DNA of 64,000 nt. It comes from Escherichia coli O157:H7. Its GTDB lineage: Bacteria; Pseudomonadota; Gammaproteobacteria; Enterobacterales; Enterobacteriaceae. The number at the start of each line of letters is the position of its first letter. Position 1 is the stretch's first letter. The notes below the pieces were generated by a model. The model was not told where the DNA came from. It ran no database searches and worked only from the letters and a program-made list of their open reading frames with translations. Positions 2,849 through 49,386 of this stretch are shown piece after piece. The stretch lies in NCBI RefSeq assembly GCF_013167455.1, contig NZ_CP038328.1. One strand, written 5' to 3'. The translations under genes and the position numbers were made by a program.

Positions 2849-3733
2849 ATGAAAAAAACATTACTGGCAGCCGGTGCGGTACTGGCGCTCTCTTCGTCTT
2901 TTACTGTCAACGCAGCTGAAAACGACAAACCGCAGTATCTTTCCGACTGGTGGCACCAGAGCGTTAACGTTGTCGGAAGCTATCACACCCGTTTCGGACC
3001 GCAGATCCGCAACGATACCTACCTTGAGTACGAAGCATTCGCTAAAAAAGACTGGTTCGACTTCTATGGTTATGCGGATGCGCCGGTATTCTTCGGCGGT
3101 AACTCCGATGCAAAAGGTATCTGGAACCACGGTTCTCCTCTGTTTATGGAAATCGAACCACGTTTCTCCATCGACAAGCTGACCAATACTGACCTTAGCT
3201 TCGGTCCGTTCAAAGAGTGGTACTTCGCGAACAACTACATTTACGACATGGGTCGTAATAAAGATGGTCGCCAGAGCACCTGGTACATGGGTCTGGGTAC
3301 CGATATCGACACTGGCCTGCCGATGAGCCTGTCCATGAACGTCTATGCGAAATACCAGTGGCAGAACTATGGCGCAGCGAACGAAAACGAGTGGGACGGT
3401 TACCGTTTCAAAATTAAATACTTTGTGCCGATTACCGATCTGTGGGGCGGTCAGCTGAGCTACATCGGCTTCACCAACTTCGACTGGGGTTCCGATTTAG
3501 GGGATGACAGCGGTAACGCAATCAACGGTATTAAGACCCGTACTAATAACTCTATCGCTTCCAGCCATATTCTGGCTCTGAACTACGATCACTGGCACTA
3601 CTCTGTCGTAGCTCGTTACTGGCACGACGGTGGTCAGTGGAACGACGATGCAGAACTGAACTTCGGCAACGGCAACTTCAACGTTCGCTCTACCGGCTGG
3701 GGTGGTTACCTGGTAGTAGGTTACAACTTCTGA
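2849..3733 (+). CDS. tsx: nucleoside-specific outer-membrane channel Tsx (phage T6 / colicin K receptor)
   Basis: 294 aa from [22 protein letters not shown] signal peptide; aromatic-rich beta-barrel ending ...GYLVVGYNF. Confidence 0.95.
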
Positions 3734-37976: not shown

Positions 37977-38438
37977 GTCTGTATTTCCTTATCCAAAGTA
38001 TGGAGAAGTTAACATTATGTTTCACAACTTCATAGTGTCTGGAGGTATTATTTTTATGGCAAAGGAAATACTTTGCGCAAATATTTTTTGTTTGATTACC
38101 AGCGAAACGTTTCTCTTATTTAAATAATTACCCACACAAAACATAGGCTTTTAATTATCAACCTTTATTATAAATAAAAGTTATGAAATATATTCTCTTC
38201 GTTAACTTATAATTAAGAGAAAAAAACTCACCGCATGGCCATTTAAGCCAGGAATAAATTAGCTTCCCGTTCATCATTTTTGTGATCTTGCGCACATCTT
38301 TGAGATAACGCACTTTCTTCACCAGTACGTTGCACGCTTTGTCAGCAGAAGATTGCAACAATCTTTCAGAAGGCCGCGAATCCCCCGTTTTGTCGTGGTA
38401 ATGTATGCACTTTGTGTTAGACGGGATAGGTTTTTAAG

Positions 38439-44232: not shown

Positions 44233-44921
<689 letters not shown>

Positions 44922-44922
44922 T

Positions 44923-47886
<2,964 letters not shown>

Positions 47887-48411
47887 TTGTCATCCCTCCT
47901 CAGGGACGTAATAAGTTGATCCATCAATTATCAATGCATAGAAAACATCTTATGTTTCGCGTTGACGATTATGCGGCGTTATAGAGGAATGGTTCAATTA
48001 TTCTTTCCCCTAAGTCCGATTGCGGACATATATAAAAATATCTATACGCACAAAGAATAAGTTGACAAAAACACTGCATTTCAACACGTTAATGAAATCA
48101 TTAATTTTGAATTATAGATCCTAAAAATACCAAAACAACAAATCAGACAAATAATTTATCAATAAGCAATGAACTTTAAGTAATTCAATTTTTGACAGTT
48201 CAACCAAATTGACAAAAATAATAACCAGCACCTATAAATAAAAATTAAAAAATATTTTCAGTGAATATGAAGTTATTGCTATTTCTATTACAAAGATGCC
48301 CTGGTCTCTCTTTCATTCTCTTCTTGTCAACATCGTGACAACTTTCGTAAAACACTCCAGCCCCGCTTCAGGTATACTGTGCACCTTAATTCCACAAACA
48401 TCAGGCAGACC

Positions 48412-49386
48412 ATGACAGACTTAATCCAACGCCCTCGTCGCCTGCGCAAATCTCCTGCGCTGCGCGCTATGTTTGAAGAGACAACACTTAGCCTTAACGA
48501 CCTGGTGTTGCCGATCTTTGTTGAAGAAGAAATTGACGACTACAAAGCCGTTGAAGCCATGCCTGGCGTGATGCGCATTCCAGAGAAACATCTGGCACGC
48601 GAAATTGAACGCATCGCCAACGCCGGTATTCGTTCCGTGATGACTTTCGGCATCTCTCACCATACCGATGAAACCGGCAGCGATGCCTGGCGGGAAGATG
48701 GACTGGTAGCGCGTATGTCGCGCATCTGCAAGCAGACGGTGCCAGAAATGATTGTCATGTCAGACACCTGCTTCTGTGAATACACTTCTCACGGTCACTG
48801 CGGTGTGCTGTGCGAGCATGGCGTCGACAACGACGCGACTCTGGAAAATTTAGGCAAGCAAGCCGTGGTTGCAGCTGCTGCAGGTGCAGACTTCATCGCC
48901 CCTTCCGCCGCGATGGATGGCCAGGTACAGGCGATTCGCCAGGCGCTGGACGCTGCTGGCTTTAAAGATACGGCGATTATGTCGTATTCGACCAAGTTCG
49001 CCTCCTCCTTTTATGGTCCGTTCCGTGAAGCTGCCGGAAGCGCATTAAAAGGCGACCGCAAAAGCTATCAGATGAACCCAATGAACCGTCGTGAGGCGAT
49101 TCGTGAGTCACTGCTGGATGAAGCCCAGGGCGCAGACTGCCTGATGGTTAAACCTGCTGGAGCGTACCTCGACATCGTGCGTGAGCTGCGTGAACGTACT
49201 GAATTGCCGATTGGCGCGTATCAGGTGAGCGGTGAGTATGCGATGATTAAGTTCGCCGCGCTGGCGGGTGCTATAGATGAAGAGAAAGTCGTGCTCGAAA
49301 GCTTAGGTTCGATTAAGCGTGCGGGTGCGGATCTGATTTTCAGCTACTTTGCGCTGGATTTGGCTGAGAAGAAGATTCTGCGTTAA
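48412..49386 (+). CDS. hemB: porphobilinogen synthase (delta-aminolevulinic acid dehydratase)
   Basis: 324 aa from [37 protein letters not shown]... Confidence 0.95.

Follow-up and report, generated by a model that had tools for sequence, protein, structure and literature searches.

What function is served by the DNA that separates ehaB from hemB in Escherichia coli O157:H7? In the 64,000-nucleotide stretch that was analyzed (hereafter “the window”), ehaB is a 980-aa open reading frame on the minus strand (44944-47886). The annotation names its product as the autotransporter adhesin EhaB, and the gene is intact in O157; yaiT is the K-12 name for the same gene, which is an IS3-split pseudogene in that strain. 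In O157:H7, EhaB contributes to adhesion and biofilm formation and has been considered as an antigen for vaccines, but its phenotypes have been seen only on overexpression. The hemB gene (48412-49386) is on the plus strand, and iprA is located 42 bp beyond ehaB on the same strand as the latter. Because the ehaB start codon ends at position 47886 and the hemB ATG is at 48412, the interval under study coincides exactly with the divergent intergenic region, a gap of 525 bp. Its G+C content is 33.0%, compared to 50.8% for the window; the initial annotation thus described it correctly as an AT-rich divergent gap between yaiT and hemB. In this report, we conclude that the interval is probably a regulatory region shared by ehaB and hemB, in which two promoter modules flank an AT-rich spacer that would allow H-NS to silence ehaB. 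The features discussed below are collected in Table 1.

The arrangement is not peculiar to one strain. The 901 bp around the interval are 100% identical to the corresponding DNA in Sakai, EDL933-type, and many other O157 genomes. When one genome per species was scanned for hemB relatives, 80 loci were found, 39 of which have an adjoining, divergent ehaB orthologue. The divergent arrangement is therefore present in 39 species from at least 15 genera of the Enterobacteriaceae. Others have noted that seaB/ehaB always adjoins hemB, upstream of iprA (PMC13248724). The sequence occurs at a single place per genome, which rules out the remnant of a mobile element.

Table 1. Features of the ehaB/hemB intergenic region, with positions numbered from the first nucleotide of the window.
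Feature	Position	Strand	Remarks
Whole ehaB/hemB divergent intergenic region	47887-48411		525 bp, 33% GC
Leader end (CG)UCCCUGAGGAGGGAUGACAA, directly before the ehaB AUG	47887-47908	-	GGAGG Shine-Dalgarno in a potential 5-7 bp hairpin; GGA motifs
Conserved AUUGAUGGAUCAAC in the ehaB leader	47915-47928	-	GGA in a potential hairpin loop, or DNA palindrome TTGAT-GG-ATCAA
Leader palindrome AAACAT-N3-ATGTTT	47943-47957	-	Genus comparison
Predicted ehaB sigma-70 promoter	47968-47997	-	Consensus scan and cross-genus conservation
Palindrome GTCCG-N4-CGGAC	48014-48027		Centre ~58 bp before the presumed start of ehaB transcription
AT-rich hyper-divergent core	48036-48235		GC down to 21%; proposed H-NS nucleation/silencing platform
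TTGACA copy 1, inside AAGTTGACAAAAA	48062-48067	+	CTGACA in L112, TTAACA in MOD1-EC7003
TTGATAAATT, 9/10 match to the high-affinity H-NS motif TCGATAAATT	48153-48162	-	Motif search
TTGACA copy 2	48192-48197	+	AAAAAT after 16 nt gives a promoter-like pair (48192-48219)
TTGACA copy 3, 18 nt, TATAAA	48209-48238	+	11/12 sigma-70-like, toward hemB, O157-specific
Perfect palindrome TTGTCA-N6-TGACAA	48324-48341		In nearly all Escherichia alleles sampled, not in other genera
Predicted hemB promoter	48339-48378	+	Cross-genus footprint
hemB leader with ribosome-binding region TTCCACAAACATCAGGCAGACC, ending at the ATG	48390-48411	+	Conserved across genera

A gap of this length could conceal a gene, either for an unannotated small RNA, as the initial annotation had proposed, or for a small protein. 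Besides the long non-coding gap itself, two open reading frames speak for this idea. In K-12-type alleles, an ORF of 88-89 codons runs through the AT-rich core, and a rough, composition-based estimate of the chance of such an open frame is ~2e-4, before correction for the frames and positions tried. A hydrophobic ORF of 25-29 codons is kept in most of the E. coli alleles examined. However, no other allele class keeps the long frame open, and the short frame, diverged in E. albertii, is missing elsewhere. Lacking conservation, both were rejected as genes; with no ORF kept across alleles or genera, we agree with the original reading that the interval has no ORF with a coding signature. As for RNA, a scan against Rfam (E <= 10) returned noise only, the best hit being IS128 (E = 4.7), with a score of 15.7 bits where the gathering threshold is 80. 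No terminator-like site is found within the interval; the only one in positions 47700-48600 is at 48551-48536, inside hemB. Further, the core cannot be aligned between genera, which also speaks against a small RNA. No feature is annotated inside the interval in the RefSeq records of Sakai, of K-12, or of any of 40 sampled E. coli, although K-12 RefSeq does list small proteins, such as YtiB and YkiC, at neighbouring loci. A literature search found no report of a small RNA here. We consider a hidden gene of either kind to be highly improbable.

The two ends of the interval are far better conserved than its middle, and the features of both suggest promoters. Over the ~150 bp adjoining ehaB, E. 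coli alleles share 92-100% identity. The predicted ehaB promoter has the -35 hexamer TTGAAC (47997-47992), an 18-nt spacer, and the -10 hexamer CATAAT (47973-47968), which is read as GCATAAT. Both hexamers are kept across genera while the sequence of the spacer varies, and a consensus promoter scan independently picks the same TTGAAC-18-CATAAT combination. Transcription of ehaB would then start at about 47961 ± 2, giving a leader of ~75 nt.

Upstream of this putative promoter is the palindrome GTCCG-N4-CGGAC. It is retained as (T)GTCYG-N4-CRRAC in nearly all genera, and it also occurs in S. enterica diarizonae. No compensatory changes accompany its variation, a pattern that suits a protein operator and not an RNA. 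The palindrome is thus a likely candidate for a transcription-factor operator. IprA, the product of the nearby iprA gene, combines a winged-helix domain with a weak cNMP-like domain and could be named, speculatively, as a protein that binds the palindrome. A second copy of the palindrome (with up to one mismatch) was not found in the 64-kb window, for example near iprA, and nothing links IprA to this site. Readings of the palindromes as sites for CRP, FNR, CpxR, or PhoP, or as a marbox, were compared by eye and gave no convincing match.

The presumptive ehaB leader is also well conserved. Its end, UCCCUGAGGAGGGAUGAC, directly before the AUG, is the same in 31 of the 32 species compared, which represent at least 15 genera; the exception differs at a single base. 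The AAACAT-N3-ATGTTT palindrome is present in Escherichia, Citrobacter, Kluyvera, and Intestinirhabdus, and is deleted in Enterobacter and Lelliottia. Folding predicts hairpins in this leader (z = -1.74). The initial annotation had suggested covariance analysis as a check for structured RNA; applied to the hairpins of the 5'UTR, it disclosed no covariation. The Shine-Dalgarno hairpin is invariant, and the pairing in AUUGAUGGAUCAAC is 76% kept. In the former case, covariation is absent because the pairs do not vary. Given the z-score and the absence of covariation, we do not regard RNA structure in the ehaB leader as demonstrated.

Leaders that are repressed by CsrA, such as those of glgC, pgaA, and cstA, present GGA motifs in hairpin loops, with one motif overlapping the Shine-Dalgarno sequence. 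The ehaB leader resembles them: it has a conserved GGA in AUUGAUGGAUCAAC and, ~25 nt away, a conserved GGA/AGGGAUGA at the Shine-Dalgarno hairpin. In a supplementary table of Potts 2017, K-12 yaiT' is a sequence-predicted target of CsrA. The same study reports that ribosome footprints on yaiT' are significantly elevated in a csrA mutant (log2 +0.63), with no significant change in the RNA. It found no CsrA CLIP-seq peak on yaiT', however, and in this respect, as in the lack of covariation in its hairpins, yaiT' differs from the established CsrA-repressed leaders. Translational repression of ehaB by CsrA is a plausible proposal in view of the GGA motifs of its leader.

At the other end of the interval, the ~175 bp adjoining hemB are 88-100% identical between E. 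coli alleles. Here, a conserved block, CAACTTTCGTAAAACA (48339-48354), is followed after 18 nt by GGTATACT, which includes the probable -10 hexamer TATACT (48373-48378). Across genera, this hexamer takes the form TAnAnT (TATACT, TACACT, TACAAT, TAGACT, or TAAACT). We infer a hemB transcription start at about 48385 ± 2 and a leader of ~27 nt; a literature search found no report on the hemB start site. The -35 region, AAAACA, is a poor match to the sigma-70 consensus, such that hemB transcription may depend on an activator or on some other mechanism. When the -35 block was read as a sigma-E or sigma-32 element, by eye, no convincing match emerged. A natural deletion supports the assignment of the hemB promoter. 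In strain 4848, the end of an IS1 element replaces everything upstream of position -9 relative to TATACT, such that 49 bp of native DNA remain before hemB. The IS1 end supplies TTGGCA at a spacing of 18 nt from TATACT, an arrangement consistent with use of the predicted -10 hexamer.

The feature that first drew attention to this interval was a reiterated TTGACA-like motif, and the motif is indeed overrepresented. TTGACA begins at 48062, 48192, and 48209 on the plus strand and is found at 48330 on the minus strand. Two of the plus-strand occurrences have the form TTGACAAAAA, and they are part of a 13-nt direct repeat, AA[G/A]TTGACAAAAA, at 48059 and 48206, 147 bp apart. The four occurrences exceed what the composition predicts (0.52 ± 0.70 in 2000 dinucleotide shuffles, of which a fraction of 0.001 reach four), although the hexamer was chosen post hoc from among many possible hexamers. 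The accompanying suggestion that the DNA is curved fared less well: AA/TT phasing at periods of 10-11.5 bp was not above that in the shuffles (fractions 0.27-0.86).

The distribution of the motif among alleles bears on its meaning. A metagenome scan with an invariant 24-mer, together with the genomes already in the set, brought the number of complete Escherichia intergenic regions to 78, representing 49 distinct sequences. In 76 of the 78, the only TTGACA is the conserved one on the minus strand, which is one arm of the palindrome TTGTCA-N6-TGACAA. The three plus-strand copies, all located inside the variable core, occur in the O157 allele only (1/78). They are thus an allele-specific feature of the spacer and not the promoter of the autotransporter gene. 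That role would belong to the predicted site at 47997-47968, which is conserved and lies elsewhere.

The origin of the three copies can be traced by comparison with L112, the nearest allele to that of O157 (~10% away in the core), and with Escherichia sp. MOD1-EC7003. Copy 1 is one base off in each of them. Copy 2 is a single G-to-A change; both of the other alleles have TTGGCA. Copy 3 differs from both by four adjacent substitutions (48210-48213), which suggests one templated event that copied AAGTTGACAAAAA. One could therefore suppose that the copies are working -35 elements, and that O157 has gained one or two upstream promoters, which would give hemB a second, long-leader transcript or drive a new short transcript that includes the ORF at 48261-48338. 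The apparent templated origin of copy 3 and the enrichment over shuffles are compatible with this idea, as are the matches to the consensus (11/12 at 48209-48238 and 10/12 at 48192-48219). Further, the TATAAA partner of copy 3 is kept in the aligned Escherichia alleles apart from MOD1-EC7003, which has TATGAA. Against it, the copies are missing from 77 of the 78 alleles, the nearest included, and the ORF is not conserved outside E. coli. AT-rich DNA also gives promoter-like sites by chance: the region has 3, versus a shuffle expectation of 3.2. (The scan demands T at position 6 of the -10 element and for this reason misses TTGACA-18-TATAAA.) The predicted hemB promoter, conserved in all genera, is located 160 bp downstream, and sites within the core would be silenced if H-NS covers it. 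We regard working -35 elements as unlikely. At most, the O157 copies create cryptic or accessory promoters that face hemB.

If the copies of TTGACA do not account for the middle of the interval, what does? This segment stands out by its composition. The 200 bp beginning at 48095 have the lowest G+C content (21%) of any 200 bp in the window. Among the 39 species with the divergent arrangement, the interval measures 389-617 bp with 32-44% GC (32-38% in 38 of the 39), and all 39 have a 150-bp core of 15-29% GC. The cores cannot be aligned between genera, whereas both ends of the interval align well.

Within the genus, the core is very diverse. Compared with five other E. coli alleles, the O157 interval is a mosaic, the core of which is only 60-75% identical between classes (58-75% within Escherichia), with 0-4 gap positions. 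By comparison, the ~37 kb of the window that were aligned to K-12 are 98.1% identical, with a median of 99.0% for 200-bp bins; the bins of lowest identity in the window are those of the intergenic core, at 70-72%. For the 78 alleles, pairwise distances have a median of 0.31 in the core (48036-48235; maximum 0.42), versus 0.04 in the ehaB-proximal block, 0.07 in the hemB-proximal block, and 0.055 at the third codon positions of hemB. The length of the interval nonetheless holds steady at 522-527 bp. At least seven deep classes of core allele, diverged by up to ~40%, can be distinguished, and some are common to other Escherichia lineages. Core divergence within E. coli is as large as that separating E. 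coli from E. albertii. The allele of O157 is nearer to that of MOD1-EC7003 (82% identity) than to those of other E. coli with which it was compared (64-75%).

Very AT-rich DNA of this kind is bound by the silencing protein H-NS. A high-affinity H-NS motif, TCGATAAATT, was reportedly described by Lang et al. in 2007. With up to one mismatch allowed, this motif matches 13 places in the 64 kb, one of them at 48153-48162 in the core; given so many comparable matches, the site is weak evidence taken alone. Our search of the literature found no study of E. coli yaiT and H-NS.

Experimental data come from an orthologous locus. In S. Typhimurium, yaiU (= seaB) encodes an orthologous autotransporter, is divergent from hemB and upstream of iprA, and has an AT-rich promoter fragment. 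That gene was termed a previously reported H-NS-repressed gene in a study (PMC10657408) in which H-NS shifted the AT-rich yaiU promoter fragment, and not a coding-region control, in EMSA. Isothermal titration calorimetry in the same work gave Kd values of 0.29-0.46 uM across four promoters including that of yaiU, and ChIP-qPCR placed H-NS on the yaiU promoter in vivo, with c-di-GMP relieving the binding. Also, an H-NS K107A mutant showed less yaiU mRNA and a higher occupancy of the promoter by H-NS (PMC10657408). Between hemB and yaiU in Salmonella, a ChIP-seq peak of SoxS has been described as well, with no motif assigned. Salmonella is another genus and its core does not align with that of E. 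coli; the layouts were compared via S. enterica diarizonae, which has the same palindrome, -35 hexamer, AT-rich core, and hemB promoter block.

The conserved composition and size, the lack of conserved sequence, and the Salmonella data together favour the core as a platform for H-NS nucleation and silencing of ehaB. By analogy to yaiU, we infer that H-NS occupies the core in E. coli as well. The initial proposal of an H-NS-silenced promoter region for the autotransporter is thus credible, given that the orthologous promoter is bound by this protein and is described as repressed by it.

Such a region would have relatives among other E. coli surface adhesin genes silenced by H-NS, e.g. flu/Ag43, upaB/upaC, ehaG/upaG, and the csgD-csgB intergenic region. 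These genes have long, AT-rich upstream regions and are poorly expressed in laboratory culture. As in these cases, ehaB is a surface-protein gene with a long, AT-rich upstream region. It differs from them in that neither a switch for phase variation nor Dam/OxyR sites nor an invertible element was seen in the region, and in that its divergent partner, hemB, is a housekeeping gene with a promoter ~300 bp away. We view the region as an ordinary H-NS-type regulatory region of an adhesin gene, the population genetics of which are mildly curious.

A rival view is that the core is an inert spacer subject to AT-biased drift, and that its diversity stems from relaxed constraint and from recombination that imports old alleles. 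The lack of sequence conservation between genera accords with this view, as does the loss of the whole core in strain 4848. The same can be said of the several deep allele classes, of the affinity of the O157 allele to that of MOD1-EC7003, and of the absence of linkage between the core and the passenger-side flank. Yet bacteria tend to delete inert DNA, and the AT-rich core and the interval containing it have persisted in 39 species. In the 78 alleles, the length is maintained despite core divergence of up to 41%. The core distance, set against that at hemB third codon positions, is above what relaxed constraint predicts, and the orthologous Salmonella fragment binds H-NS. We therefore judge an inert spacer to be quite unlikely. 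Relaxed constraint alone fails to explain the approximately five-fold excess of divergence in the core over near-neutral sites.

Silencing by H-NS, which we favour as the role of the core, is not enough to account for a divergence of the core that is about five times that of its near-neutral neighbours. Hitch-hiking with the passenger domain of ehaB was ruled out, the two sets of distances being essentially uncorrelated (Spearman 0.06-0.14). As the core classes are not linked to the passenger classes, recombination within the conserved promoter/signal-peptide block shuffles two hypervariable modules independently. Balancing or diversifying selection on the strength of silencing may keep old alleles in the population, or the rate of substitution may be raised locally. 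A stronger version of the former idea holds that the core is a module constrained in length and composition and under balancing or diversifying selection of its own, that its alleles encode heritable set-points for H-NS, and that the gain of -35 elements in O157 is one variant among these. We consider this version unlikely.

Pan-genome studies are said to have described “switched” or hyper-variable intergenic regions (reportedly Oren et al. 2014, PNAS, and Thorpe et al. 2018, Piggy). The ehaB/hemB interval is similar to these in that its flanking genes are conserved while a segment reshuffled by recombination is far above the genome average in divergence. It is dissimilar in that its alleles are still homologous (58-75% identity), with almost no change in length and no replacement by unrelated DNA. 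Further, the divergence is confined to the central part, and both promoter modules are conserved.

In our preferred reading of a shared regulatory region, the interval would comprise three modules. The first (47887 to ~48035) would serve ehaB, with a sigma-70 promoter, an operator palindrome of the 5-N4-5 type upstream of it, and a leader of ~75 nt with a Shine-Dalgarno hairpin. The second (~48339-48411) would serve hemB, with its TATACT -10 element, a conserved block that spans the -35 region, and ~27 nt of leader. The third would be the AT-rich spacer between them, with a core of ~200 bp in which H-NS nucleates and thereby silences ehaB. The hemB module, which is normal in GC content, would be at the edge of the core and would stay outside the H-NS filament.

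For the annotation of E. coli genomes, this analysis indicates that the interval harbors no hidden gene or small RNA, and that the TTGACA repeats are a chance feature of one allele of the AT-rich spacer. For the biology of EhaB, a predicted promoter, a likely H-NS platform, and a candidate repressive leader make the silencing of this adhesin directly testable. Among strains, the proposed silencer upstream of ehaB is as variable as the surface-exposed domain of EhaB, and it varies independently of that domain. If variation in the core changes expression, differences among strains in the production of EhaB would be regulatory, not structural.

Within the autotransporter adhesin gene ehaB, the passenger-encoding part shows only 49-80% nucleotide identity from strain to strain, with a median distance of 0.46 over nt 401-1200 (numbered from the ATG), whereas the parts encoding the signal peptide and the β-barrel are 97-100% conserved. 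The classes of passenger and those of the AT-rich intergenic core assort independently. Beyond E. coli, the locus of Salmonella enterica subsp. diarizonae is incomplete: it lacks the 5' end of seaB, the Salmonella orthologue of ehaB, along with the leader and the -10 hexamer, but still carries the hemB promoter, the AT-rich core and, on the seaB side, the palindrome and the -35 hexamer. In the arizonae locus, the entire module is absent.

Features of the ehaB-hemB region and of other parts of the window (coordinates in the window, or in the fetched locus where an L-number is given)
Feature	Position	Strand	Remarks
ehaB passenger domain	44944-47780		hypervariable between strains
ehaB-iprA spacer	44902-44943		42 bp
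Small hydrophobic ORF	48261-48338	+	just upstream of hemB promoter
88-89 codon ORF, ATG start	L001 (K-12), intergenic positions 85-354	reverse	K-12-type alleles; also L006, L004 (M23917)
IS1 terminal repeat/hemB junction	L007 (strain 4848), 3448-3551		TTGGCA at 18-nt spacing from hemB -10 hexamer
Partly kept ehaB/hemB intergenic module	L024, 3580-4000		S. enterica subsp. diarizonae
Putative dispersed repeat	63515-63622 and 25865-25956; L088, 2923-3334		both window segments match the mhpE-mhpT unit at 80-87% identity
Second locally divergent stretch vs K-12, with adjoining low-GC segment	37301-37650 and 38027-38226

Two open reading frames lie inside the intergenic region. The longer, of K-12-type alleles, crosses the AT-rich core toward hemB; it is interrupted in all other allele classes, and the K-12 annotation holds no entry for it. 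An open frame of this length is surprising in DNA of roughly 28% GC. The small hydrophobic ORF is retained in most E. coli alleles examined, and in most E. coli alleles other than that of the window it encodes 29 amino acids ending in RQLS; it is divergent in E. albertii and missing from other genera. Inspection by eye found no good Shine-Dalgarno sequence for it.

On the other side of ehaB, its stop codon is followed on the same strand, after the short spacer, by the start of iprA (yaiV); iprA may therefore be transcribed in part together with ehaB. In K-12, the yaiU-yaiV spacer has been described as holding a constitutive promoter of its own, one that carries an H-NS mark (Shimada 2014).

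Elsewhere, the K-12 mhpE-mhpT gap holds four tandem copies of a unit of ~101 bp. Together with its matches in the window, this unit looks like a dispersed intergenic repeat family. The second stretch divergent from K-12 has 86-88% identity to it, versus a window median of 99%; beside it lies a 200-bp segment of 25.5% GC, the second-lowest value in the window.

Insertion sequences have repeatedly altered this locus. IS3 interrupts ehaB/yaiT in K-12, and IS2 does so in M23917; in strain 4848, an IS1-mediated deletion removed nearly all of ehaB and most of the intergenic region. There, the hemB -10 hexamer lies 9 nt downstream of the IS1 terminal repeat, which itself supplies the TTGGCA. Judged by this arrangement, the housekeeping gene hemB has apparently acquired an IS-derived hybrid promoter in this strain. 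Because a different insertion sequence has struck ehaB/yaiT in different strains, these events suggest that the adhesin EhaB has been lost recurrently.
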